From Alphaproteobacteria bacterium (lineage in GTDB: Bacteria; Pseudomonadota; Alphaproteobacteria; GCA-2731375), in contig CBDDDJ010000005.1 of assembly GCA_965226475.1 (NCBI GenBank), forward strand, positions 1,040,406-1,104,405: 64,000 nucleotides of DNA, read 5' to 3'. Shown here in pieces: positions 46,816-63,494 of this stretch (its first letter is position 1; every line of letters begins with the position of its first letter). Both the position numbers and the translations under genes were made by a program. The notes beneath the pieces were generated by a model that made no database searches, had not been told where the DNA came from, and worked only from the letters and a program-made list of their open reading frames with translations.

Positions 46816-47117
46816 GGGTTGGCGAGCGCGGTGACATAAAACTCTAGCCGCACCCATTCGACGATGACGTCGACCAGACTGGACACGTCGAACTTCACAT
46901 AGGCGTATTGATTGTCGCCGTTCGCGTCGCGCCCGAAGCGCATCGTTTTGTCGGTGCCGTAATTTGTCGACGTGGTCGCCTGCGAGACCCAGGTGTCCTC
47001 GGTCGCCTTGAACGTTCGTTCCAGGGCCCGCGCCGGGGACGGCCAAGCCAGCACCACGAGGGGCGCGGCGAGAAGCAGCGATCGGAGGGCGGCGCGCGAT
47101 AGTTCGGAAAGCGTCAT
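46816..47117 (-). pseudogene. Large secreted multidomain protein gene, 5' segment (signal peptide plus start of a DNRLRE/CBM96-like domain)
   Basis: From ATG 47117 the signal peptide reads MTLSELSRAALRSLLLAAPLVVLAWPSPARA. It continues LERTFKATEDTWVSQATTSTNYGTDKTMRFGRDANGDNQYAYVKFDVSSL...EFYVTALANP and then runs into the IS256 end. Confidence 0.75.
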
Positions 47118-47808
47118 GAATTCCGCCGGCAAATGCTCGCGTCCAGACCCTCCCCGATCAGCCCGGACATGGAAGCGCGGAAGGCGCGAGATAGTCAAGA
47201 ATATCAATAACTCGTAATATTAACTGTGAGCCGATTCCTTTGGAAACCCGCGCCGGGGCCTCTCCCACGGACCCAAGCGCCTGCGTCGACCCGGCGGGCG
47301 GCGGCCACGGCGATATCCGGCGGCGCGATCCGGAGGTCGTGCTCGACGATGTGCTGGACGGCCCGCCTTCGCGGGCTCCGGGTACTGGCGCCGTCCGCGG
47401 ATGCAGACGATTACCGAGAGAGACCGAGGCGCCGAAAATCTCCGCGATGAGGTCCGCCGTCGTCGAGGGATAGCTCTCTGGGCGCACCGGTTCGATCAGT
47501 TGGGGAGTAGGTCTTGCCATGGCGCTTTGATTATCCGACAAACCTTTGAAAAATCGAGGTAAACCAAATTTCAGACGTCAAGGTTGCCGATTTGGACTGC
47601 CACTCCCGAGTTCCGGCTAAGCATCCGATATAATAAGGTTTTTCGCCCTATATCGGCGAGTGGCCGCCTATATTGGCGTGATGGTCTCATCGGTAGCGTG
47701 GGCAACAGGGTAAGGCCATGCCGACTTGACGCCAAAACCGTCCCCTCGCTCCCTCGCGTTCCTTGACGTATCCTCCATGCAATACCCGGCCACGAGGGAG
47801 AGAAAACC

Positions 47809-48600
47809 ATGACCCCAGGCGAGTCCCAGATCCGCAATCCCGCGAAGGAGAAACTGGCGAACGGCGGCGCGGCGCTGGCCTTCAACGTCTTCGAGAGCCT
47901 GCGACCCTCGGTGGCGAAGATCGTCGCCCAGCTCGGCTTCGACATTTTGTTCGTCGAGACCGAGCATATTTTTCACGACCCCGAGACGCTGACGATGTTC
48001 CTCGTGATGGCGCGCGACAACGGACTGACGCCGATCGTGACCATCCCCGTCGTCGATCGCGCGGACGTCTGCCGTCTGCTGGACGCGGGCGCGCTCGGCT
48101 TCTGCCTTTGTCACGCCGAGAGCGTCGAACAGGTCGAGGACCTGGTCCGGTTCGCCAAATATCAGCCCATCGGCGTGCGCGCCCTGGCGCATGGGCCGGG
48201 CGCCAGCTATTGGATCGAGGATTCCGCCAGCTACCGTGCGGCGGCGAACGAGGCGGTGCAGATCATCCTCAAGATCGAGTCGGCCGAGGGCGTGCGAAAC
48301 GTCGAGGCGATGATGGCGGTCGCGGGGGTCGATGCCATCGTCTTCGGCCCGGGCGATCTGGCGGCCGACATGGGCACGCCCGGCGGCTGGGACGATCCCG
48401 CGCTGCTGGCGGCGATGGAAGGCGTGATGGATGCGGCGCTCGCCCGGGGCATGGCGGTGGAGGCCGCGGTCGGTCCCCGCGACCATGACGAGTTCGAGGC
48501 GATGAAGGCGCGCGGCATCCAGATCTTCGGGCCGGCGCGGATGACCGAATACGACCACCTGCGCGCCGGCGCCACCCTGGCCTTGGCGCCGTTTCGTTGA
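47809..48600 (+). CDS. HpcH/HpaI aldolase / citrate-lyase-beta family protein
   Basis: This is a 263-aa ORF. Supporting segments are FDILFVETEHIFHD, KIESAEGVRNVEAM and VFGPGDLAADMG. Confidence 0.9.
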   Translation: MTPGESQIRNPAKEKLANGGAALAFNVFESLRPSVAKIVAQLGFDILFVETEHIFHDPETLTMFLVMARDNGLTPIVTIPVVDRADVCRLLDAGALGFCLCHAESVEQVEDLVRFAKYQPIGVRALAHGPGASYWIEDSASYRAAANEAVQIILKIESAEGVRNVEAMMAVAGVDAIVFGPGDLAADMGTPGGWDDPALLAAMEGVMDAALARGMAVEAAVGPRDHDEFEAMKARGIQIFGPARMTEYDHLRAGATLALAPFR

Positions 48601-48621
48601 GAGCGAGGGAAGGGTCATGAC

Positions 48622-49512
48622 ATGCAGCTGAACCGCTTCCTGGTTCGTCCCGCGATCCAGCGGGCGCTGGAGGAGGAGCTCTATCCGGGCGACACCACCG
48701 GTGGTTTCCTGGTCGACGATAGCCAGCCCGGCGAAGCGCAGATCTACGTCAAGGAGGCCGGCATCGCCTGTGGCCTGCTGATGGCCGACGAGACCGTCCG
48801 CATGCTGGATAGCGAGGCCGAGATCGAATGGCGGGTCCGCGACGGCGACCAGGTGGCGCCGGGCGACGTGCTGATGCAGGTCCGCACCAAGGCCTGGGTG
48901 CTGTTCTCGATCGAACGGGTGGCGCTGGACTGGATCCAGTACATGAGCGGCATCGCCACCAAGACCCGGCGCTACGTCGAACTGGTGCGGCCCTACGGCA
49001 CCCGCATCACCGACACCCGCAAGGGCGTTCCCGGAATTCGCCTGCTGCAGAAATACGCCGTCCGGATCGGCGGCGCCCACAACCACATCTTCGGCCTGCA
49101 GAACGCGATCCTGGTCAAGGACAACCACATCAAGGCGGCGGGTGGTCTGACGGCGGCGGTGCATATTCTGAAGGATCGCGCCCAACACACCTTCAAGATC
49201 GAGGTCGAATGCGAATCCCTCGATCAGGTCCGCGAGGCGCTCGAGGCCGGCGCGGACATCATCATGTTCGACAATATGACGCTTCCCGACATGAAGGCGG
49301 GGCTTGCCATCATCGACGGCCGGGTGCCGACCGAGGCGTCCGGCGGCATCACCGAGGAGACCATCGTCGGAATCGCCGCGACCGGGGTCGACATCATCTC
49401 CGTCGGCGCGCTGACCCACAGCGTGACCGTGATCGACGTCTCCATGGACATGGGCGAGATCAAGCCGAGCGCGCGCCGCGTCATCGCCGAGCGCCGCGCG
49501 GCCGGCGACTGA
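48622..49512 (+). CDS. Nicotinate-nucleotide pyrophosphorylase family protein (NadC/ModD-like phosphoribosyltransferase)
   Basis: This is a 296-aa ORF. Supporting segments are ERVALDWIQYMSGIATKT, TDTRKGVPGIRLLQKYAVRIGGAHNHIFGL, LVKDNHI, IEVECESL, IMFDNM and EASGGI. It deviates from the canonical TRKT and NHR motifs. Confidence 0.8.
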   Translation: MQLNRFLVRPAIQRALEEELYPGDTTGGFLVDDSQPGEAQIYVKEAGIACGLLMADETVRMLDSEAEIEWRVRDGDQVAPGDVLMQVRTKAWVLFSIERVALDWIQYMSGIATKTRRYVELVRPYGTRITDTRKGVPGIRLLQKYAVRIGGAHNHIFGLQNAILVKDNHIKAAGGLTAAVHILKDRAQHTFKIEVECESLDQVREALEAGADIIMFDNMTLPDMKAGLAIIDGRVPTEASGGITEETIVGIAATGVDIISVGALTHSVTVIDVSMDMGEIKPSARRVIAERRAAGD

Positions 49513-49526
49513 CGGCCGGCTGGGCC

Positions 49527-50255
49527 ATGGCGAAATCCAAGCCGTTGATCGCCGCCGGCGCGGGCATCATCCCCGCCCTCGACGTCGACGACCTGGACCG
49601 CATGCGCCGGATCGTCGAGGCGACGGCGCCGGTCGAGGGCGTCGTCGGCTACAAGCTCGGCGCGGTGGTGGCGCTCCGCCATGGCCTCTCGCGCGCGATC
49701 GCCGTGGTGCGCGAGATCTCCGATCTGCCCGTGCTTTACGACCACCAGAAGGCGGGAACCGACATCCCCTCGATGTCGGACGGCTTCACCAAGGTCTGCC
49801 GCGACGCGGGCGCCGACGGGCTGGTACTGTTCCCGCTCGCCGGCCGCGAGGCGGTGCGCCAGTTCGCGCGGCGGACGATGGCCCGCGGCATGACGCCGCT
49901 GGTCGGCGGCGAGCTGCCCTATCCCGAGTATCGCGCCCGCCACGGCGGCTTCGTCCATGACGGCGCCCTGTCGCGCATCCTGGAGGAGGCGACGAGCGTC
50001 GGCGTCGACCATGTAATCGTGCCGGCCAACGATCCGAAAAATATTCGCCGCCAGGTCCGAATGGTCCGCCGCCACGTCGAGGCGCCCTGGGTGTTCCTGC
50101 CGGGTATCGGCGCGCTCGGCGGCGGCATCGACGAAGCTTTCGCCGCCGCCGACGGGTGCCGGCGCTATGCCATCATAGGCCGCGCCATCCTGCGGGCGCG
50201 GCGCCCCGCCACGATGGCGAAGCGTTTCGCCGAGGAAGCGATGAAATACGCATGA
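49527..50255 (+). CDS. Orotidine-5'-phosphate-decarboxylase-fold protein
   Basis: It starts at ATG 49527 and encodes 242 aa. Supporting segments are IIPALDVDDLDRMRRIVE...GYKLG and LYDHQKAGTDIP (DxKxxxD-like). It lies inside a longer track ORF that is in another frame upstream. Confidence 0.7.
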   Translation: MAKSKPLIAAGAGIIPALDVDDLDRMRRIVEATAPVEGVVGYKLGAVVALRHGLSRAIAVVREISDLPVLYDHQKAGTDIPSMSDGFTKVCRDAGADGLVLFPLAGREAVRQFARRTMARGMTPLVGGELPYPEYRARHGGFVHDGALSRILEEATSVGVDHVIVPANDPKNIRRQVRMVRRHVEAPWVFLPGIGALGGGIDEAFAAADGCRRYAIIGRAILRARRPATMAKRFAEEAMKYA

Positions 50256-50277
50256 CGGCGAAGGGGAGAAAGGGGGC

Positions 50278-51537
50278 ATGACTTGGGCGGTCGTCGGCGG
50301 CACGTTGTTCGATGGAAGCGGCCGGGACCCGGTCGCCGACGGCGTCGTGGTGATCGAGGGAGAGCGAATCGTGGCCGCCGGGCCGGCAAGCGCGGTGGCG
50401 CTGCCCGCGGGCAGCGATATCATCGATGCCCGGGGCGGCACGATCCTCCCCGGGTTTGTCGATTGCCACCTGCATTGCGCCTACCGGGCGCGCGATTATG
50501 GCTCGCATCTGAAGAACCATCCGACCTACAACATCTTCCGCTCTCAACAGTTGATGAAGGCGACGCTCGATTGCGGCGTCACCACGGCGCGCGATACCGG
50601 CGGGGCCGACGCCGGATTCCGCCAGGCGATCGCCGACGAGATCGTGCCGGGTCCGCGCCTGCAGGTCGCGATCGGCATGATCAGCCAGAGCGGCGGGCAC
50701 GGCGACGTCTTCGTCCCGGCCGGCTTCCCGGTGCCCAAGCGGGTCTGGCTGCCCAACAACATCGCCGACGGCGTCGACGGCATGCGCCGGGTCTGCCGCG
50801 AGTTCCTGATGCGGGGCGCCGATTTCCTCAAGGTCTGCACCACCGGCGGCGTCACCTCCCTCACCGACGATTACGACGAGGTCCAGTTCAGCGTCGAGGA
50901 GATCGCCACCGCCGTCGCCGAAGCCGAGGCCAAGGGCACCTACGTGGCGGTCCATGCCGAAGGCCTGCGGGGGATCAAGAACGCGCTTGCCGCCGGCGCC
51001 CGCTCGATCGAGCACGGCTGGTTCCTGGACGAGGAATGCATCGACACCATGCTCGGCCACAGCACCTGGTGGATCCCGACCCTGGCGCTGATCCCGGAAG
51101 GCCACAAGCGGCGCCGGCATGACGCGGACTGGGCGGGCCAGGAGCTGGCCGACGAGGGCGGCAAGGAGGCCCGCATCATGCCCGGCCTCGAAGCTCAGAT
51201 CCCGCTCTTCAAGGAGGCAGTCAGCCGGGGCGTCAAAATCGCCATGGGGACGGACCAATCGCACCGCTTGCTCACCGGCGAGAACCTGGTCGAGCTCGGC
51301 TACATGGTCGACTACCTCGGCATGACGGAGATGCAGGCGATCGTCGCCGCCACCTCGACGGCGGCCGAATTTTTGGGCTACCCGGACCTCGGCCGCCTGG
51401 AGGCCGGCGCCCTGGCCGACGTCGTGGTCTTCGACGGCGATCCGCTCGCCGACATCTGGAGCCTGGCCGAGGCCGAGCGCATGCGCCTGGTCGCCAAGGC
51501 CGGCCGGATCCACAAAAACACGCTTCAGGACGCGTGA
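50278..51537 (+). CDS. Amidohydrolase family protein (metal-dependent, imidazolonepropionase/prolidase-like)
   Basis: This is a 419-aa ORF. Supporting segments are GFVDCHLHC, VAVHAEG, IEHG and GTDQS. Confidence 0.85.
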   Translation: MTWAVVGGTLFDGSGRDPVADGVVVIEGERIVAAGPASAVALPAGSDIIDARGGTILPGFVDCHLHCAYRARDYGSHLKNHPTYNIFRSQQLMKATLDCGVTTARDTGGADAGFRQAIADEIVPGPRLQVAIGMISQSGGHGDVFVPAGFPVPKRVWLPNNIADGVDGMRRVCREFLMRGADFLKVCTTGGVTSLTDDYDEVQFSVEEIATAVAEAEAKGTYVAVHAEGLRGIKNALAAGARSIEHGWFLDEECIDTMLGHSTWWIPTLALIPEGHKRRRHDADWAGQELADEGGKEARIMPGLEAQIPLFKEAVSRGVKIAMGTDQSHRLLTGENLVELGYMVDYLGMTEMQAIVAATSTAAEFLGYPDLGRLEAGALADVVVFDGDPLADIWSLAEAERMRLVAKAGRIHKNTLQDA

Positions 51538-51551
51538 GGGAAGGACAAGAG

Positions 51552-51929
51552 ATGACCGACGCGACGACCACGGCCCCGGGCCGGAGCTTCGAGCCCATCC
51601 CCCTCGACTTCGACAAGATGGGCGGCCTGGTGCCCTGCGTGGTGCAGCATGCCTATACCCGCGAGGTGCTGATGGTGGGCTTCATGGACCAGGAAGCGTG
51701 GCGGCAAAGCTGCGAGGATGGCCTGTTGACGCTCTATCGCCGCACCCTCGGGCGGGTCTGGCGGATGGGGGAGGAGGACGGCAAGTTCGTCCGCATTTCC
51801 CGCGTCCTGGTCGATTGCGACGACGATACCGTGGTCTTCGAAACCGTGCCCGAGCACCCGGTCTGCGGCAAGGGTTACCTCAGCTGCTTCTACCGCGAGG
51901 TCCCCGCCGCGGTCGACGGCGAGCACTGA
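51552..51929 (+). CDS. Phosphoribosyl-AMP cyclohydrolase (HisI)-like protein, stand-alone
   Basis: It starts at ATG 51552. Supporting segments are GLVPCVVQHAYTREVLMVGFMDQEAW, VLVDCDDDTVVFE and CGKGYLSCFY. No HisE part and no other his genes are nearby. Confidence 0.8.
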   Translation: MTDATTTAPGRSFEPIPLDFDKMGGLVPCVVQHAYTREVLMVGFMDQEAWRQSCEDGLLTLYRRTLGRVWRMGEEDGKFVRISRVLVDCDDDTVVFETVPEHPVCGKGYLSCFYREVPAAVDGEH

Positions 51930-51953
51930 GCCATCAGGTGGCCACACCGCACT

Positions 51954-52108: not shown

Positions 52109-52805
<697 letters not shown>

Positions 52806-52813
<8 letters not shown>

Positions 52814-53519
52814 AGGCGGCGCCTAGATAGGATTCGATCACGCGAGGATTTCCCTGGATCTCGTCCGGCGTGCCCTCGGCGATCTTGGCGCCGAGATGCA
52901 GCGCCAGCACCCGGTCGGCCAGGCTCATCAAGACCTGCATGTTGTGTTCGATCAAGATGATGGTGACGCCTTCCTCGCGCAGGCGTCGGACCAGGTCGAT
53001 CAGGCCGGGAATACTTCGCTGGTCGACCCCACCGGTGACCTCGTCCAGCAGCAGATAGCGCGGCCGGGTCGCCATGGCGCGGGCCATCTCCAGCCGCTTA
53101 CGCTGGCCGGTGGAGAGCACGTTGGCATAGGCGCGGCGCTTGTCGAGCAGGCCGACGAAGTCGAGCGCTTCGAGCGCGCTGCCGCGGGCGCGGCGCATGT
53201 CGGCGGTGTGCTGCATCACGCCGACCATCACGTTCTCCTCGACGCTCATCTTCTGAAACGGCTTCAGCTTCTGGAAGGTCCGCGAGATGCCGAGATGGTT
53301 GATCTGGTCGCTCCGCAGGCGCAGCAGCGAGTTGCCGTCGAGCCGGATATCGCCCGAGTCGGGCTGCAGGAAGCCGCTGATCAACTCGAACAGCGTCGAC
53401 TTGCCGGCGCCGTTCGGGCCGATAACGCCGAGGATCTCGCCCGGACCGACGGAGAAGTCGACGGCGTCGTTCGCCACCAGGCCGCCGAAGTGTTTGGTGA
53501 GGGCGCTCACTTCAAGCAT
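52806..53519 (-). CDS. Branched-chain-amino-acid-type ABC transporter ATP-binding protein (LivG-like)
   Basis: This is a 237-aa ORF. Supporting segments are GPNGAGKSTLF, LSTGQRKRLE and LLLDEVTGG. It overlaps livF-like by 8 nt. Confidence 0.9.
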
Positions 53520-54567
53520 CGGATTTTCCGTGCAGGATCCGGCGCACCAGGCCGATCAGCCCCTGGGGATAGAGCAGCGAAATGGCGATGATCATAATAC
53601 CGTAGATCATCAGGTCCTCGGCCCCGCCGGTGCCGCCGAGGTAGGCCCGGGTCAGCTCCGAAATCGGGAACAGGATCGCCGCGCCGATGATCGGCCCCCA
53701 GAGCGTGCCGAGCCCGCCCAGCATCGTCATCAACACCACCAGGATCGAAAGCAGCAGCGGGAACACGGTCTCCGGGTCGATCACCAGGACGTACTGGGCG
53801 AACTGGGTGCCGGCGATCGAGGTGAAGGCGGCCGAAAGCATGATCGCCAGCAGCTTGTAGCGGGTGAGGTTGACTCCGAGGCTTCTGGCCGCGTCCGGAT
53901 CCTCGCGGATGGCGCGGAAATAGAGACCGGCCTTCGAGCGATTCAGCCAGGCGATCAGCGCCGTGGCGGCGACCAGGAAGGCGAGCGCGATGTAGTAGTT
54001 CGGCAGCTTGTTGTCGTGGAACTGGAAGCTGTACCAGGGGCTTTCGCGATCGATCGGAATCCAGATTCCCGTGGCCCCGCCGATATGCTCCCAATTCAGC
54101 GCGATGGTGCGGCAGATCTCGCCGATCACCAGGGTGGCGATGGCGAAATAGTGGCCGCGCAGCCGGAAGGTCGGCAATCCCATCAGCAGAGCCACGACGA
54201 CCGAGATCACCATCCCCACCCCCATGCCGATCCAGGGCGTGATGCCGTGGTTGGCGTAGAAGTAGGAGGCGCTGTAGGCGCCGATGCCGAAGAAGATCGC
54301 CTGGCCGAGCGAGATCTGGCCGCAATAGCCGGCGAGCAAGTTCCAGCCCTGGGCCATCAAGCCGTAGATGAAGACCATCACCAGGATGTGGCGCTGGTAG
54401 GGCTCGAACAGGACGTGGGGATAAAGCAGGACGAAGAGGCCGACGACGGTGAGCGCCGCAAACTGGCGCCAGTCGAGCGGCGGGCGCAGCGGCTCGGCGC
54501 GCGCCGCGTCCAGCTCACCGCTGTCTTGCATGCCGATCGCCCGGCTGGAGATCGTCGTCTCTGCCAT
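53512..54567 (-). CDS. Branched-chain-amino-acid-type ABC transporter permease (LivM-like)
   Basis: This is a 351-aa polytopic ORF. Supporting segments are GYCGQISLGQAIFFGIGAY and RSLGVN. Confidence 0.9.
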   Translation of the reverse strand: MAETTISSRAIGMQDSGELDAARAEPLRPPLDWRQFAALTVVGLFVLLYPHVLFEPYQRHILVMVFIYGLMAQGWNLLAGYCGQISLGQAIFFGIGAYSASYFYANHGITPWIGMGVGMVISVVVALLMGLPTFRLRGHYFAIATLVIGEICRTIALNWEHIGGATGIWIPIDRESPWYSFQFHDNKLPNYYIALAFLVAATALIAWLNRSKAGLYFRAIREDPDAARSLGVNLTRYKLLAIMLSAAFTSIAGTQFAQYVLVIDPETVFPLLLSILVVLMTMLGGLGTLWGPIIGAAILFPISELTRAYLGGTGGAEDLMIYGIMIIAISLLYPQGLIGLVRRILHGKSDA

Positions 54568-54607
54568 CAGAACGCCTCCCCATCGGATGGAATCGCGATC
54601 GGCTCCA

Positions 54608-54690
54608 CGTCTTCGCGAGCGAAGCGTGGCGATCCGGGACCGCGTGAAAAGCGTCTCCGACCTCGCGCGCCTTGCTCGCTCGCGATGACG
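54608..54690. repeat. REPIN-like palindromic doublet, copy 2 (inside the liv operon spacer)
   Basis: The left arm is CGTCTTCGCGAGCGAAGCGTGGCGATCCGGG. The right arm is the reverse complement of CGTCATCGCGAGCGAGCAAGGCGCGCG. It occupies most of the 158-bp livH-livM gap. Confidence 0.65.
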
Positions 54691-54725
54691 GGGATGGGGC
54701 GGACACTCAGCGACCGGATCATGGT

Positions 54726-55592
54726 CTAGAACTTCCCGAAGAGGCCGGCCGGCCGGGTCAGCACGATCAGGAGATACATGCCGAAGACGATGGCGTATTT
54801 ATAGGCCGGCTGGAACAACAGGCCGCCGACCGACTCCACCAGGCCGACCAGCAGTCCGGCGACCAGCGCGCCGAGCAAGCTGCCAAAGCCGCCCATCGCC
54901 ACGGTCACGTAGGCGATCAGCGCGAACAACAGGCCGCTCTCGGGCTCGACCGGGTAATAGCTGGTGAGCAGCACGCCCGCGACCGCGACGCAGGAGGCGC
55001 CGACGCCCCAGCCGAGGGCGTACATCCGCTGGGTGTGGATGCCCATGACGGAGGCCGCCTCGCGGTCCTGCGCCGTCGCCTCGAGCGCGACACCGGTCTC
55101 GGTGTGGTTGATGAAGAGGTAAAGCGCGCCGAAGGCCAGCACGCAGCCGAGCGCCGCCACCATCTGCGGCACGCCGAGGTACAAACCCAAGATCTCCAGC
55201 CGGCCGCTGACGATCGGATCATGGATCATGCGGAAGTCGGCCGTCCAGAGGAACTGCGCCAGGCTGCGCAGGAAGATCGAGAGGCCGAAGGTCGCCGTGA
55301 TCTGCACCAGCATCGGCGCGTGCAGGATATGGCGGATGATGCCGTAGTGGGTCGCGACGCCCAAGATGAACAGCATCACGATCACCGCCGGCAGCGAGAA
55401 CAGCGGATCCATGCCGAAGGCGACGTAGCACCAGAAGGCGGCATACATCGCCAGCATGAGGAATTCGCCGTGGGCGAAGTTGACGATCTCCATCAGGCCG
55501 AAGATCAGGCTCAGCCCCGCCGCGACGAGGGCATAGATGAAGCCCAGCAACAGGCCACTGATCACGGTTTGCAGGATGATCTCGAAGGTCAT
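54726..55592 (-). CDS. Branched-chain-amino-acid-type ABC transporter permease (LivH-like)
   Basis: The start is placed at ATG 55592 (MTFEIILQTVISGLLLGFIYALVAAGLSLIFGLMEIVNFAHGEF). The protein is 288 aa. Confidence 0.9.
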   Translation of the reverse strand: MTFEIILQTVISGLLLGFIYALVAAGLSLIFGLMEIVNFAHGEFLMLAMYAAFWCYVAFGMDPLFSLPAVIVMLFILGVATHYGIIRHILHAPMLVQITATFGLSIFLRSLAQFLWTADFRMIHDPIVSGRLEILGLYLGVPQMVAALGCVLAFGALYLFINHTETGVALEATAQDREAASVMGIHTQRMYALGWGVGASCVAVAGVLLTSYYPVEPESGLLFALIAYVTVAMGGFGSLLGALVAGLLVGLVESVGGLLFQPAYKYAIVFGMYLLIVLTRPAGLFGKF

Positions 55593-55639
55593 GATTAGAC
55601 GCGCGCGATCGGCGGCGATCCGCCAGGGGACCACCCCCC

Positions 55640-59107: not shown

Positions 59108-60370
59108 ATGAGAGTGATGAAATTCTTGAGTATCGCGGCGGGCGGCCTGTTCTCGCTCGGCGTGATGGGACAGGCGGGCGAACTTGCGGCCCAGCCCAAG
59201 GAAGTCCGTATCGGGGTGCTCTATCCCCTGACCGGCGCGGTGGCGAAGGCCGGCAACGACGTGCTGGCCGCCGCCGAGGTCGCGCGCGACATCGTCAACA
59301 ACAAGCACGATCTGGAACTGCTGCTGGCCCGCACCGAGGGCCTGCCGAACCTGGGCGGCGCCAAGGTGAAGTTCATCGTCGCCGACCACCAGGGCAAGCC
59401 CGAGATCGGCCGGGCCGAGGCCGAGCGACTGATCACCCAGGAGAAGGTCCACGCACTCTACGGCGCCTATCATTCCAGCGTCACGGCCGCCGCCAGCAAC
59501 GTCGCGGAGCGGATGCAGATCCCCTACCTCACCGGTGAATCCTCCTCGCCCAAGCTGATAACGCGGGGCTTCGAGTGGTTCTTCCGGGCCGGCCCGCACG
59601 ACGGCCACTACACCCGGACCATGTTCGAATTCATGCGCGACTATGCCAAGAAGAAGGGCATCGAACTGAAGAGCATCGCGATCATGCACGAGGACACCCA
59701 GTTCGGCGTCGACAGCGCCCGGGTACAGGTGGAGCTCGCCAAGGAATTCGGCATGGAGGTCAAGTTGAAGATCGCCTACCGCTCCAAGACGACCTCGCTC
59801 GTGGGCGAGATTCAGAAGCTGAAGGCGGCCAACGCCGACGTCTTCATGCCGACCTCTTATACGACGGACGCGCTGTTGTTCATGCGGACGGCGAAGGAGC
59901 TGAACTATTCACCCAAGCTCATCATCGCCCAGAACGCCGGCTTCTCCGACAACTCGTTCATCGAGACCATGGGCACGGGAGCCAACGGCATCATCTCGCG
60001 CTCGCCCTTCTCGGTCGACATGGTCGAGAAGATCCCCGTGCTGAAGAAGGTGAACGAGCTCTACCGCAAGCGTCGCGGTGGCGATATCTACGAGCCGATC
60101 CGCAGTTTCGTCGGCGCGTGGATCCTGATCGAGGCGATCAACCGGGCCGGTTCCACCGACCCGACCAAGATCCGCGATGCGCTGCGCGCCACCGACATGC
60201 CCGGGACCGACATACCGATGCCCTGGAAGGGCGTCAAGTTCGGGGCCGACGGCCAGAACAACCTGGTCAGCACGGTGATGACCCAGGTGCACGATGGCGC
60301 CTATCAGTCGATCTATCCCTTCAACGTGGCGGCGAAGGACGTGATCTATCCCTTCCCCGATTGGAAGTAG
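59108..60370 (+). CDS. ABC transporter substrate-binding protein, LivK/branched-chain amino acid family
   Basis: The start is placed at ATG 59108 after agagggaga. The signal peptide is MRVMKFLSIAAGGLFSLGVMGQAGELAA. Family-typical segments are IGVLYPLTGAVAKAGND and YGAYHSS. The protein is 420 aa. Confidence 0.9.
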   Translation: MRVMKFLSIAAGGLFSLGVMGQAGELAAQPKEVRIGVLYPLTGAVAKAGNDVLAAAEVARDIVNNKHDLELLLARTEGLPNLGGAKVKFIVADHQGKPEIGRAEAERLITQEKVHALYGAYHSSVTAAASNVAERMQIPYLTGESSSPKLITRGFEWFFRAGPHDGHYTRTMFEFMRDYAKKKGIELKSIAIMHEDTQFGVDSARVQVELAKEFGMEVKLKIAYRSKTTSLVGEIQKLKAANADVFMPTSYTTDALLFMRTAKELNYSPKLIIAQNAGFSDNSFIETMGTGANGIISRSPFSVDMVEKIPVLKKVNELYRKRRGGDIYEPIRSFVGAWILIEAINRAGSTDPTKIRDALRATDMPGTDIPMPWKGVKFGADGQNNLVSTVMTQVHDGAYQSIYPFNVAAKDVIYPFPDWK

Positions 60371-60453: not shown

Positions 60454-61137
60454 ATGCACAAAATCGACATTCCCCAAGAAGTTATCGACTCCTGTATCCG
60501 CCTGCGCGGCAGGCGCCACGCGGTCCAGGCGCTCGAGCCATCGCGCCTGGCGCTGATCGTCGTCGACATGCAGAACGCCTGGGTGGAAGAGGGACTCTCG
60601 CCGCTGGAGATCCCGATGACCCGGTCGATCATCCCCAACATCAACCGCCTGGCAGAGGCCGTCCGCGAAGCCGGCGGCATCGTTGCCTGGACGCAATCGA
60701 CCTTCCCCGAGGACTACACCCACTGGATCTACGAGTCTTTCGGGACGCCCGAATATCGCGACCGCATAATCGCCGATTCGGCGGTTGGCGCCCATGGCCA
60801 CGAGATCCATCCCGACATGGCCGTCGAGGCCGGGGACCTGAAGATCGTCAAGAACCGGCCGAGCGCCTTCATCCAGGGTTCCTCCGATATCGAGGACCAG
60901 CTCCGCGCCCGGGGCCGCGACACCATCGTCATCACCGGCACCCTCACCAACGCCTGCTGCGAATCGAGCGCCCGCGACGCCGCCGCGCTCGGCTTCCTGC
61001 CGATCATGGTTTCCGACGCCATGGCGACCCGTACCGACGCCGAACACAACGCCACCCTGATCAACGTCATGCAACTGACGGCGGACGTGCGCACCACCGA
61101 TGAAGTGATGGGACTACTGGCGCCGCATCTGGGATGA
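60454..61137 (+). CDS. Cysteine hydrolase / isochorismatase family protein
   Basis: It starts at ATG 60454 after ggaaggaa and encodes 227 aa. Supporting segments are LALIVVDMQNAW, KNRPSAF and ITGTLTNACCESSARDA. Confidence 0.9.
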   Translation: MHKIDIPQEVIDSCIRLRGRRHAVQALEPSRLALIVVDMQNAWVEEGLSPLEIPMTRSIIPNINRLAEAVREAGGIVAWTQSTFPEDYTHWIYESFGTPEYRDRIIADSAVGAHGHEIHPDMAVEAGDLKIVKNRPSAFIQGSSDIEDQLRARGRDTIVITGTLTNACCESSARDAAALGFLPIMVSDAMATRTDAEHNATLINVMQLTADVRTTDEVMGLLAPHLG

Positions 61138-61451: not shown

Positions 61452-62375
61452 TCAGCCCCCGCCTTCCGCGAGGCAGAATTCCGCTACCTCCCGATGGGTC
61501 GCGAACCAGACCCCCTCGTGGTGCTTCATATGTTCGATCAGGCGTTCGAGGATGGTGAGGCGGGAGCGGTGGCCGATGACGTGGGGGTGCATGGTCAATA
61601 GGAACAGGCCGCCGTCGGCATAGGCGCCGTCGAACTCGGACTGGAAGATCTCCAGCACCGCCGAGGGTGCCGTGTGGGGACGGAGTGTGGTGCCCCTGTC
61701 CATCGCGAAATAGACCGCGTCGTCCTTGATCCATTCGACGGGCAGCTCGACCATGCCGGTGGCCTCGCCGTCCTCGACGATCTCGTAGGGGTCGTCGTCG
61801 GCCATGAGGGAGCTGTCGTAGAGCAACCCCATCTCCCGGCTGATGGTCAGGGTGTGCTGGCTGAAATCCCAGGACGGCGTGCGGATGCCGACCGGGCGCT
61901 GGCCCGAGACTTCCTCCAGTACGTCGGCGGCACGGAGTTGCAGGTCGCGCTCGTCGTCCGGCGGCAGGGTGCCGTTGAACTCGTGGATCCAGCCGTGGAT
62001 ACCGATCTCGTGACCCTCGTCGGCAAGGGCGCGCTGTTCCTCGGGGTGCAGCTTGGCGACCACGGCGGGGACGAAGAAGCTCGCGTGGATGTCGTTCTTG
62101 GCCAAAATCGCGCGGATGCGCGGGATCGCCACGCGGGAGCCATATTCACCCTGGCTGAGCTTGCCGGGCGAGGTCTGTCCGAAGCGGAGCGTCGAGGACT
62201 CGTGGTCCGAATCGAAGGAGAGCGCAACGGCGCAGCGGGCGCCGTCCTTCCAGGCGTTCGGTTTCAGCGAGCGACCGGCCCGCACCTTGTCGACAATCCC
62301 GCGCCAGCGCTGCTCCCGCCACTGCCAGGGAAGTTCCTCGGCCTCGGGGGTATCGGCTTGGTCGGCATAAGTCAT
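61452..62375 (-). CDS. Polysaccharide deacetylase (NodB-fold) family protein, PuuE-allantoinase-like
   Basis: This is a 307-aa ORF. Supporting segments are VALSFDSDHES, HASFFVPA, HEIGIHGWIHE and MHPHVIGHRSR. Confidence 0.85.
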   Translation of the reverse strand: MTYADQADTPEAEELPWQWREQRWRGIVDKVRAGRSLKPNAWKDGARCAVALSFDSDHESSTLRFGQTSPGKLSQGEYGSRVAIPRIRAILAKNDIHASFFVPAVVAKLHPEEQRALADEGHEIGIHGWIHEFNGTLPPDDERDLQLRAADVLEEVSGQRPVGIRTPSWDFSQHTLTISREMGLLYDSSLMADDDPYEIVEDGEATGMVELPVEWIKDDAVYFAMDRGTTLRPHTAPSAVLEIFQSEFDGAYADGGLFLLTMHPHVIGHRSRLTILERLIEHMKHHEGVWFATHREVAEFCLAEGGG

Positions 62376-62397: not shown

Positions 62398-63420
62398 TCA
62401 GCGAAAGGCCGCCATCACGGCCGCCCATTGACGAAGAAAGCGGATCTTGTCGTCGAAGTGTATGCTCATCCAGAACTGCCGCGCACCCGCCTCTATCGCC
62501 GCGCTCAGTTTGGCCACGCAATCCTCCACCGTGCCGGCGACGGCGAAACGTTCGGCCAGGTAGTCGGTAAGGCCGAGTTCGTGAATGAGTTCACGGTTGG
62601 CGCTGTCCGGCATGTCGTGCTGGTCGGCCCGGTAGCGCTGGCCGAGGGCGACGATCCGTTCATGCAAGGCCGAGGGAATGTGCTTCCCCTCGGTGGTGAA
62701 CCGGCTCAGATGCGAGCCGGCCGAGGCCAGCGTCATGGCAATCTCGTCGATCGCCTCGCGGCGATCACCGCGGATGTTGGTGAGCGGCAGCCACCACATG
62801 TCGATCTCGTCCGGCGAACGCCCGGCCGCCTTGGCGCCGGCGCGGACCCGGGCGATGGAATCGCGCACGATGTCGGGCGTCAGCCCGGTATTGATGACGA
62901 CGCCGTCGGCGATCTCGCCCGCCAGGTGCAGCATCTTGGGGCCCGAGGCCGCGAGATAGATCGGCACCTTGCCGGGCCGCCAGGTCAGCCGCACGGGGCG
63001 GCCTTGCCACTCGGACTCGCCGAGCTCGAGCAGTTCGCGAACGGTCTGGACATAGCTCCGCAGCCGCGCCCGGGTCGAGGGCGCCAGGCCCAGGTTCAGC
63101 ACCGCGCTGTCGCCGGTGCCGATACCCAGCATGGTCCGGCCCGGCGCCATCTCCTCCAAGGTCGCCGCCGCGCCGGACGCGACCGCCGGATGGCGAGTCA
63201 GCGGGTTGATCACCCTGGGACCCAGTCGGACCCGCGTCGTATGTTCGGCGCAGAGCGCCAAGCACATGTAGACGTCGCGGTAGAGCGACTGGGAATCGGC
63301 GATGCCGACGATGTCGAAGCCGACGTCCTCGGCGACCTCGGCCCAGCGAAGCGTTTCCCGGGGAGCGTGGGGCAGGTAGTTGACGCCGAAGCGGATCGGC
63401 GTTTCAGGTTCGCCCGCCAT
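62398..63420 (-). CDS. LLM-class (luciferase-like, possibly F420- or FMN-dependent) oxidoreductase
   Basis: The start is placed at ATG 63420 after gggggaggga. Supporting segments are IRFGVNYLPHAP, GIADSQSLY and GRTMLGIGTGDS. The protein is 340 aa. Confidence 0.85.
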   Translation of the reverse strand: MAGEPETPIRFGVNYLPHAPRETLRWAEVAEDVGFDIVGIADSQSLYRDVYMCLALCAEHTTRVRLGPRVINPLTRHPAVASGAAATLEEMAPGRTMLGIGTGDSAVLNLGLAPSTRARLRSYVQTVRELLELGESEWQGRPVRLTWRPGKVPIYLAASGPKMLHLAGEIADGVVINTGLTPDIVRDSIARVRAGAKAAGRSPDEIDMWWLPLTNIRGDRREAIDEIAMTLASAGSHLSRFTTEGKHIPSALHERIVALGQRYRADQHDMPDSANRELIHELGLTDYLAERFAVAGTVEDCVAKLSAAIEAGARQFWMSIHFDDKIRFLRQWAAVMAAFR

Positions 63421-63494
63421 GTCTTTCCCTCCCCCCGTCAGCGCCTGCAAATCATTCGGCGGCCCTCGGCGCGGTGGTGGCTTGGCACCCCCGC

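Follow-up and report, generated by a model that had tools for sequence, protein, structure and literature searches.

Why should genes for a NadC-like phosphoribosyltransferase (PRTase), a protein of the orotidine monophosphate decarboxylase (OMPDC) suprafamily, a metallo-amidohydrolase and a stand-alone HisI-like hydrolase be packed side by side, behind a gene for an HpcH/HpaI-family protein? The question is raised by a block at positions 47809-51929 of a 64,000-nt stretch of contig CBDDDJ010000005.1 (assembly GCA_965226475.1), which was analysed as a whole and is called the window here. An earlier note on this DNA had described five co-directional genes spaced by 21, 14, 22 and 14 nt, and the open reading frames (ORFs) and their translations agree with it, all five genes lying on the plus strand. 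Our best reading is that the genes at 48622-51929 represent a copy, gained by horizontal transfer, of a widespread module. We hypothesize, with a confidence that falls somewhat short of even, that this module processes an alpha-carboxylated pyridine-type N-heterocycle as its 5'-phosphoribosyl nucleotide, in the order phosphoribosylation, decarboxylation and hydrolytic ring opening. The proposal is drawn from sequence comparison and gene neighbourhoods, and the evidence for each step is set out below.

The OMPDC-like protein has at least 834 relatives in a collection of 5.8 billion proteins and is represented by relatives in 496 of 185,579 species genomes, in bacteria as well as archaea. The alphaproteobacterial carriers include Bradyrhizobium, Xanthobacter, Tistlia, Hyphomicrobiaceae and Methyloligellaceae. 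Further bacterial carriers belong to the Beta- and Gammaproteobacteria, Mycobacterium, Rubrobacteraceae, Acidobacteriota, the Bacilli (Bacillus methanolicus, B. smithii, Aneurinibacillus, Alicyclobacillus) and one cyanobacterium, and the archaeal ones to ANME-1, Methanosarcinales, Thermoplasmata and Thermoproteota. By means of this protein 80 loci were fetched, which make 81 together with the window; the neighbouring ORFs were clustered and the recurrent clusters annotated (Table 1), and the 50 loci flanked by 6 kb or more on either side served as a strict set. The core is a PRTase gene beside the OMPDC-like gene, and the PRTase belongs to one of three unrelated kinds: Proteobacteria, Actinobacteria and Acidobacteria have a NadC-like, Bacilli a NAMPT/NAPRT-like and Archaea a PyrE-like enzyme. 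A recognised PRTase was present in 44 of the 50 full-flank loci, and two more contained one that had been missed by the length filter. Within 10 kb of the OMPDC-like gene, a NadC-like gene was found in 62 and the amidohydrolase gene in 47 of the 80 fetched loci, a linkage that far exceeds chance. Thus, the neighbourhood search proposed in the earlier note upheld the block as a unit for four of its genes, all except the HpcH-like one, which recur together in other genomes. Because the pairing of PRTase and OMPDC-like protein persists with three unrelated PRTase folds, sequential phosphoribosylation and decarboxylation would be the reaction order that these genes share.

The composition of the module varies with the lineage. 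In Bacilli without a NadC-like gene, a divergent NAMPT/NAPRT-like PRTase is encoded upstream of the OMPDC-like protein. In Aneurinibacillus (L020) the order is NAPRT-like, OMPDC-like, HisI-like, PRPP synthetase, inosine-uridine nucleoside hydrolase and HAD phosphatase, where PRPP is phosphoribosyl pyrophosphate. It is in this locus that a PRTase, a ring hydrolase, a phosphatase and a hydrolase for the ribosyl fragment stand together; the window holds the PRTase and hydrolases only. In B. smithii (L006, 266-1674) the NAPRT-like gene, which is located upstream of the OMPDC-like one, appears as a pair of overlapping ORFs of 210 and 289 aa, so a frameshift or pseudogene is possible; the module of this species adjoins an S14 paralogue, znuABC and cobW, a neighbourhood of the zinc-limitation type. 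A PyrE-like type I PRTase was found near the OMPDC-like gene in four of the five archaeal loci, directly downstream in L069, L083 and L087 and about 4 kb off in L071. The PyrE-like match is weak in these four loci, which come from ANME-1, Methanosarcinales, Thermoplasmata and other archaeal MAGs and whose genomes have a canonical PyrF elsewhere, and in ANME-1 a HAD phosphatase gene precedes the pair. The typical Bradyrhizobium operon consists of cinA, cobW, the OMPDC-like gene, genes for an aldehyde dehydrogenase and the amidohydrolase, the nadC-like gene, a gene for a TIGR01993 nucleotidase, livK and more ABC genes, with a divergent MocR-type regulator alongside. The PncC-like and HisI-like proteins are mutually exclusive: the former is encoded in 33 and the latter in 11 of the 50 full-flank loci, and both together in none. 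The exclusion may reflect either a single step in two versions or two classes of substrate. The PncC-like protein is absent from both the window and the window genome.

The OMPDC-like protein matches PF00215 with 42.6 bits and remains below all pyrF cut-offs of NCBIfam (58.5 vs 208; 24.8 vs 92.3). The catalytic DxKxxD block of PyrF is not present. In its place the alignments show D72-H-Q-K75-A-G-T-D79, the DHQKAGTD sequence already noticed in the window protein, and DHQKAGxD was found in 27 of 27 aligned members, the full family motif being YDHQKAGxDxP. The columns D19, K43, YDHQKAG, D79, GIG..GG and GR are invariant in these 27 members. Among them, the 5'-phosphate gripper (GIGALGG, GR), the ribose-binding Asp19 and the first lysine, Lys43, align with the OMPDC of M. 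thermautotrophicus. The AF2 model (pLDDT 89) has the (beta/alpha)8 OMPDC fold, and its best Foldseek matches are archaeal OMPDCs, including that of M. thermautotrophicus (TM 0.79-0.89, 22-25% identity). Ser127 and Gln185 of the latter enzyme, which we take to be its uracil contacts, align with Pro and Leu/Met here. Because the gripper is kept and the base-contact positions are changed, the ligand of the OMPDC-like protein should be a 5'-phosphoribosyl nucleotide whose base is less polar. A role as the true PyrF, in Archaea as elsewhere, was rejected, since a canonical PyrF was found in 10 of the 11 other carrier genomes checked; the window genome has its own on contig C4 (184 bits).

The NadC-like protein contains PF02749 and PF01729. 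Its departures from the canonical motifs, given earlier as TRKG for TRKT and NHI for NHR, reappeared in the alignment to 1x1o, 3gnn and 3paj. Both basic residues of TRK, the KDNH lysine, the N-domain ER and the acidic ligands of the ribose have counterparts in NadC; by comparison with solved quinolinate phosphoribosyltransferases (QPRTases), the protein retains its N-domain Arg and the residues that bind PRPP, ribose and the alpha-carboxylate. In NHR, the Arg (Arg161 of the human and Arg162 of the M. tuberculosis enzyme) contacts the 3-carboxylate of quinolinate or nicotinate mononucleotide (NaMN), and the human R161A variant is a crippled QPRTase (PMC3633916, PMC4726147). Ile, Leu or Met stands at this position in all 61 module-linked NadC-like proteins, so the Arg is lost throughout, and [RL]KG was likewise found in 61 of 61 (TRKG in 57, A[RL]KG in 4). 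The genomes that carry the OMPDC-like gene also contain canonical paralogues, seven of which have both TRKT and NHR, an eighth TRKT only, while two gave no match to the regular expressions. In the tree, the canonical copies form a clade separate from the module NadC-like proteins with a support of 1.0. Moreover, the canonical NadC genes of B. methanolicus, Aneurinibacillus and Alicyclobacillus and the TRKT-only copy of Mycobacterium are located within 3 kb of nadA. The module NadC-like gene is never linked to nadA, and the nadA-linked copies in other carriers are of the TRKT/NHR type. As judged from these alignments, the substrate pocket is systematically altered where quinolinate bears its non-leaving carboxylate. 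Since the 3-carboxylate pocket has turned neutral, the substrate is taken to be other than quinolinate.

Two hydrolases complete the recurrent part of the block. The amidohydrolase (Amidohydro_1, 144.8 bits) scores under every amidohydrolase equivalog cut-off of NCBIfam, the best model being NF051886 for a Caulobacter-type Xaa-Pro dipeptidase (247 bits vs a cut-off of 500). In the alignment to prolidase 3feq (E 5e-54), the HxH, the carboxylated Lys, two His and the Asp ligands all have counterparts and the binuclear site is complete. Its kin are prolidase Sgx9260b, the Arg carboxypeptidase Cc2672 and ochratoxinase, all of which cleave acyclic amides beside a carboxylate. The HisI-like protein (PF01502, 65.8 bits) falls below both NCBIfam HisI cut-offs (92.6 vs 126; 98.9 vs 187). 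It was aligned to 1zps, 6j22 and the genome's own canonical HisI (122 bits, contig C2). The Zn Cys triad and DCDDD are kept, and VC and SC match those of 1zps and 6j22, but RRTLxRV and GEEDG stand where HisI has SRSR and GExSG, and CG(K) where HisI has CH. Proteobacterial HisI-like members have Gly for the His of CH. The protein has no PRA-PH domain and no his context, which is in line with the earlier statement that it lacks a HisE partner and his neighbours. In all 17 fetched loci that contain it, 18 with the window, the HisI-like gene is found directly or closely downstream of the OMPDC-like gene. A reverse check placed HisI-like relatives of 75% and 64% identity in minimal operons of NadC-like, OMPDC-like and PRA-CH genes, and identified a relative of 54% identity as an ordinary HisI adjoining HisG. 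An alternative start of the HisI-like ORF is the GTG at 51534.

Table 1. Features of the block and its surroundings in the window, and gene families recurring around the OMPDC-like gene (81 loci, window included).
Feature	Position	Strand	Pfam or other assignment	Loci of 81
HpcH/HpaI-family protein, 263 aa	47809-48600	+	PF03328	
NadC-like type II PRTase, 296 aa	48622-49512	+	QRPTase_N+C	63 by BLAST (mostly 60-65% identical to the window's, 49-92% overall)
OMPDC-suprafamily protein, 242 aa	49527-50255	+	OMPdecase PF00215	
cog1228-type binuclear metallo-amidohydrolase, 419 aa	50278-51537	+	Amidohydro_1	48 (orthologous, 54-66% identity; 86% in L011)
Stand-alone HisI-like (PRA-CH fold) zinc hydrolase, 125 aa	51552-51929	+	PF01502	18
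Two ABC ATPases and two permeases	52109-55634	-	BPD_transp_2 (permeases)	
LivK-type periplasmic binding protein	59108-60370	+	Peripla_BP_6	
Isochorismatase domain	about 60550-61137		Pfam	
Deacetylase	61452-62375	-	Polysacc_deac_1	
Luciferase-like monooxygenase (LLM)	62398-63450	-	Pfam	
Aldehyde dehydrogenase, 486 aa			closest to betaine/aminobutyraldehyde and HpaE types, no cut-off reached	48
PncC-domain protein			above TIGR00199 cut-off	41
HAD phosphatases			one above TIGR01993 pyrimidine-5'-nucleotidase cut-off	about 35
COG0523 GTPase				27
MocR-type regulator				17
Liv-type binding protein				16

We propose that the encoded enzymes could act in the following sequence. With PRPP, the NadC-like PRTase would phosphoribosylate the ring nitrogen of a heterocycle that is alpha-carboxylated and other than quinolinate; picolinate- or dipicolinate-type acids are candidates. 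The OMPDC-family enzyme would then strip the carboxylate beside the ribosylated nitrogen, as PyrF does after PyrE. N-ribosylation would both permit this alpha-decarboxylation and make the ring electrophilic, so that a metal-bound water could attack the cationic, activated ring and the HisI-like zinc enzyme could cut the N-C(alpha) bond, comparable to the action of HisI on PR-AMP. A HisI-derived enzyme is a natural candidate for ring opening because the bond that HisI cuts joins a 5-phosphoribosylated ring nitrogen to its neighbouring carbon. In the fourth step, the cog1228 amidohydrolase would hydrolyse the resulting acyclic C-N bond; alternatively, it might act first and free the acid from an amide conjugate. 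Elsewhere, an aldehyde dehydrogenase, a 5'-nucleotidase, a nucleoside hydrolase and a PRPP synthetase may finish the set, the ribose phosphate being a recyclable handle. An aldehyde product would account for the aldehyde dehydrogenase in other loci, and the PRPP synthetase, phosphatase and nucleoside hydrolase of Bacilli suggest that the handle is recycled. It may be speculated that the substrate is a chelating acid of the picolinate or dipicolinate type, which would agree with the loss of the 3-carboxylate pocket, with decarboxylation at the alpha position and possibly with the COG0523 metallochaperone. The earlier idea that a heterocyclic carboxylate is handled as a ribonucleotide survives in part: comparative genomics supports PRPP attachment, decarboxylation and ring hydrolysis as the general idea, and the aldol cleavage that was to follow finds no support. 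The more detailed version of the scheme is possible but doubtful. It would be an oxygen-independent cleavage of pyridine-type rings in bacteria and archaea, in which PRPP makes a cationic ribotide, a branch of the OMPDC family decarboxylates it, a HisI- or PncC-derived enzyme hydrolyses it, an amino-dienal passes to aldehyde dehydrogenase and amidohydrolase, and ribose phosphate is recycled.

Several observations weigh against a catabolic ribotide route. The spacing of the altered D-H-Q-K block means that decarboxylation is not assured, and the HisI-like protein of the window has Gly in place of the catalytic His of HisI. With 301 bits vs 198.4, the NadC-like protein exceeds the cut-off of TIGR00078, the NCBIfam equivalog for nadC, and its gene is the sole type II PRTase/QRPTase-family gene of the genome. 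NAD-precursor metabolism would explain the PncC-like, NAMPT-like and SDT1-like partners no less well than catabolism. Furthermore, archaeal and some bacterial loci consist of the PRTase and OMPDC-like genes alone or of a three-gene set, without transporter or downstream catabolic genes. No riboswitch or regulator that would point to a ligand was found: Rfam searches of the window and of six loci gave no family and no RNA lead, and a promoter scan found no promoter consensus in the block region. A search for plasmid-borne copies whose annotation might help gave none.

The main rival, which we consider unlikely, is that the PRTase and the OMPDC-like protein salvage a NAD precursor by converting an unusual pyridine to nicotinamide mononucleotide (NMN) or NaMN, which would feed NAD synthesis. 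The substrate could be quinolinate, taken in two steps, pyridine-2,5-dicarboxylate or a carboxamide derivative, and the PncC- or HisI-like protein together with the amidohydrolase would trim the precursor. The PncC-domain protein, encoded in 33 of the 50 full loci, and the SDT1-type nucleotidase are the kind of partners expected for such a route, and in L051 a strong NAMPT-like gene adjoins the NadC-like, OMPDC-like and CinA genes. The passing of TIGR00078 points the same way, as does the NAD supply of the window genome (7.97 Mb, 5 contigs, 96% complete), in which there is no NadA, NAPRTase/NAMPT-family gene, PnuC or second NadC. With the NadC-like protein as the only QRPTase and these families absent, the protein could, taken alone, be an essential QPRTase. 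Likewise, the sole NadC copy of Tistlia is that of the module, and NadA is absent there. In favour of salvage, the window genome does contain a gene for 3-hydroxyanthranilate 3,4-dioxygenase (3-HAO; C5:847249-847695, L093 8163-8696, minus strand), which adjoins an IS4/5 transposase, a PhyH-family dioxygenase and a BKACE-family gene, with no other kynurenine-pathway gene adjacent. As the 3-HAO gene is isolated beside an insertion sequence (IS) element, its locus was rejected as part of a kynurenine/NAD operon, and this isolation counts against salvage.

What speaks against salvage is the loss of the 3-carboxylate-binding Arg in every module NadC-like protein and the presence, in most carriers, of a full nadA-linked canonical NadC as well. 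The aldehyde dehydrogenase, PRPP synthetase and nucleoside hydrolase partners are also ill-suited to a route of vitamin scale. In addition, most relatives of the window genome live without the module. The OMPDC-like gene was found in 2 of 61 same-class genomes, namely the window genome and one of the same genus. Another genome of the genus (G018, 98% complete) contains neither the OMPDC-like gene nor any NadC-family gene, and the NadC family is also missing from six of another seven genomes of the same taxonomic family. Since module and NadC are both absent from these relatives, the lineage does not depend on NadC, and the NadC-like gene travels with the module, which is an accessory, patchy trait. 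A housekeeping NadC was therefore rejected in view of the subfamily signature, the missing nadA link and this absence from G018 and most of the family. The same holds for the block in general: a housekeeping role, set beforehand as the test, was not what the genome showed, as canonical PyrF and HisI are encoded elsewhere and the lineage as a whole is without NadC. The families searched do not account for the NaMN/NMN route of this lineage (window genome, G018, G019, G021, G026).

The biosynthesis of a modified nucleoside, base or cofactor precursor is quite unlikely. Here, a carboxylated heterocycle would be built or imported, pass through PyrE/PyrF-like steps to a non-canonical nucleotide, be remodelled by the cyclohydrolase, dephosphorylated and released. 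Stand-alone HisI homologues serve chemistry of the nucleoside-antibiotic type, and the HAD phosphatase and nucleoside hydrolase that follow the core in Bacilli speak for this reading. The minimal two- and three-gene versions without transporters, including those of ANME-1, Methanosarcinales and Thermoplasmata, would also suit biosynthesis. However, the tailoring, resistance or export genes of natural-product clusters do not recur, ABC importers and a MocR-type regulator do recur in the largest locus class, and the module is scattered, in single copy, over organisms that live in very different ways. Most improbable is a zinc economy, in which COG0523-linked back-ups of HisI, dihydroorotase-like and PyrE/PyrF-type enzymes would perform ordinary chemistry under zinc limitation: HisI and amidohydrolases are zinc enzymes, a COG0523 GTPase is encoded inside 19 of the 50 full loci and the B. 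smithii neighbourhood is suggestive, but the base-contact and catalytic motifs differ from those of PyrF and HisI in every member, the amidohydrolase is of the cog1228 type and not a dihydroorotase, the partner PRTase is mostly NadC-like, and the window copy has no COG0523 gene with it.

The ribotide pathway proposed here does not include the HpcH-like protein. It matches PF03328 (79.5 bits) and scores far under all aldolase equivalog cut-offs of NCBIfam. In the alignment to the solved aldolases 3qz6, 4tv5 and 1dxe, its Glu/Asp metal ligands are kept (KIESAEG, GPGDLA), and Thr78 occupies the position of the catalytic Arg of HpaI/GarL aldolases (IVTIP vs xVR[IV]P), which is Arg70 in HpaI. The subfamily comprises at least 121 clusters, and Thr stands at the Arg position in 121 of 121 members (the window protein and 120 retrieved relatives). 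As a whole, this Thr-for-Arg subfamily may have an activity other than aldol cleavage. The relatives of the window protein adjoin FAA-hydrolase, RraA-like or aldo-keto-reductase genes and not the module. Among the loci anchored on the OMPDC-like gene, the HpcH-like gene occurs in the window and in the same-genus L011 only, where the five-gene block is colinear (47823-51932, 84% DNA identity). In the next relative, L009, whose OMPDC-like protein is 78% identical to that of the window, the DNA match begins at the start codon of the NadC-like gene (48621-51943, 80% identity) and there is no HpcH gene. Because it is restricted to the genus, has relatives in other contexts and lacks the catalytic Arg, the HpcH-like gene is, on the sequence evidence, a genus-specific passenger, an add-on of uncertain activity. 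On the same grounds it was rejected as the final step of the pathway, and the aldol cleavage is not supported.

The surroundings of the block are consistent with a horizontal acquisition. Its flanks are rich in IS elements: an IS4/5 transposase, a Mutator-family transposase and a gene fragment lie on the left, and an IS3 element separates the Liv permease and ATPase genes from the binding-protein gene. Hydantoinase genes are 7.5 kb from the module in the window (40329-47823) and 1.4 kb in L011 (6869-8243). The Liv-type importer, isochorismatase, deacetylase and LLM genes listed earlier as neighbours were all recovered by Pfam, but a membership in the module did not follow. DNA comparison with L009 and L011 gave a relative of the binding-protein gene only, in L009; the isochorismatase, deacetylase and LLM genes were not searched for in the other 78 loci. 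In L009 the LivK-like relative (70% identical in nucleotides) and the module are about 5 kb apart, and in L011 the Liv genes, the LivK-type gene included, are not adjacent to the module. Moreover, with an identity of 25%, the LivK-type protein of the window and the binding protein encoded in Bradyrhizobium-type clusters are not orthologues. The window protein may be an uptake partner of the module, but the link is weak. A membrane-anchored protein of 379 aa is encoded after the module in L009 (10434-11573); it has no Pfam or NCBIfam match and is probably unrelated to the module. It was rejected as a missing member, as its homologue in the window genome (49% identity) is encoded on another contig (C2:548757-549776) and it does not occur in the other loci.

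If the proposed pathway is correct, NadC with a remodelled pocket, OMPDC with a new catalytic motif and HisI in a stand-alone, non-histidine role would each have an unrecognised branch, and the three would meet in one pathway. Known bacterial pyridine catabolism uses molybdenum hydroxylases and oxygenases; the module would provide a PRPP-driven hydrolytic route for N-heterocyclic acids. Cultured carriers (Xanthobacter, Bradyrhizobium, Tistlia, Mycobacterium, Bacillus methanolicus, Aneurinibacillus) make the hypothesis directly testable. The earlier note knew of no described pathway with this gene set, and full-text literature searches, with a partial coverage of subscription journals, did not find a description either. 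The sources label the proteins only as OMP decarboxylase/HUMPS, nicotinate-nucleotide pyrophosphorylase and PR-AMP cyclohydrolase. Under their present labels nadC, pyrF and hisI, the families would mislead metabolic reconstructions of the carriers into a false NAD, pyrimidine or histidine capacity.

Among the known systems, PyrE/PyrF is similar in the adjacency of a PRTase and an OMPDC-fold gene, in the fold, the phosphate gripper and the Asp and Lys of strands 1-2, and in Archaea even in the PyrE-like partner. It differs in that the module has YDHQKAGxD for the DxKxxD of PyrF, a pyrF score below the cut-offs, an extra copy beside the canonical PyrF and mostly a type II PRTase. NadC shares both domains and the TIGR00078 match with the module protein, in which the Arg of NHR has become Ile, Leu or Met and the Thr of TRKT has become Gly, and which belongs to a separate clade. 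With HisI, the module hydrolase has the PRA-CH fold, the Zn Cys triad and DCDxD in common, and its substrate would bear a 5-phosphoribosyl group on the ring nitrogen beside the attacked bond; unlike HisI, it has RRTLxRV and GE(D/E)DG, a sub-cut-off score and a place next to the OMPDC-like gene in lieu of HisE or his genes. In most other loci its place is taken by a protein with the domain of PncC, the nicotinamide mononucleotide deamidase known as the CinA C-terminal domain, and the two never occur together. The module amidohydrolase resembles the cog1228 enzymes (3feq/3n2c, Cc2672, 4c5y) with E values of 5e-54 to 2e-41 and the full binuclear site, although it reaches no equivalog cut-off, and an operon context of PRTase and OMPDC-like genes is not known for the characterised members. 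The closest analogy in logic is the URC uracil catabolism of yeast (URC6 uracil PRTase, URC1, ribosylurea, URC4), in which URC1 is GTP-cyclohydrolase-II-like. In this pathway the base is made a ribotide, the ring is opened hydrolytically as the nucleotide and the ribosyl fragment is released later (PMC7530994). The Prs, phosphatase and nucleoside hydrolase of Aneurinibacillus mirror URC, whereas the enzyme families are unrelated and URC is eukaryotic, acts on uracil and has no decarboxylation. Thus, pairs of phosphoribosyltransferase and decarboxylase and ring opening at the nucleotide level are already known, and it is the three enzyme subfamilies combined here that are unrecognised.

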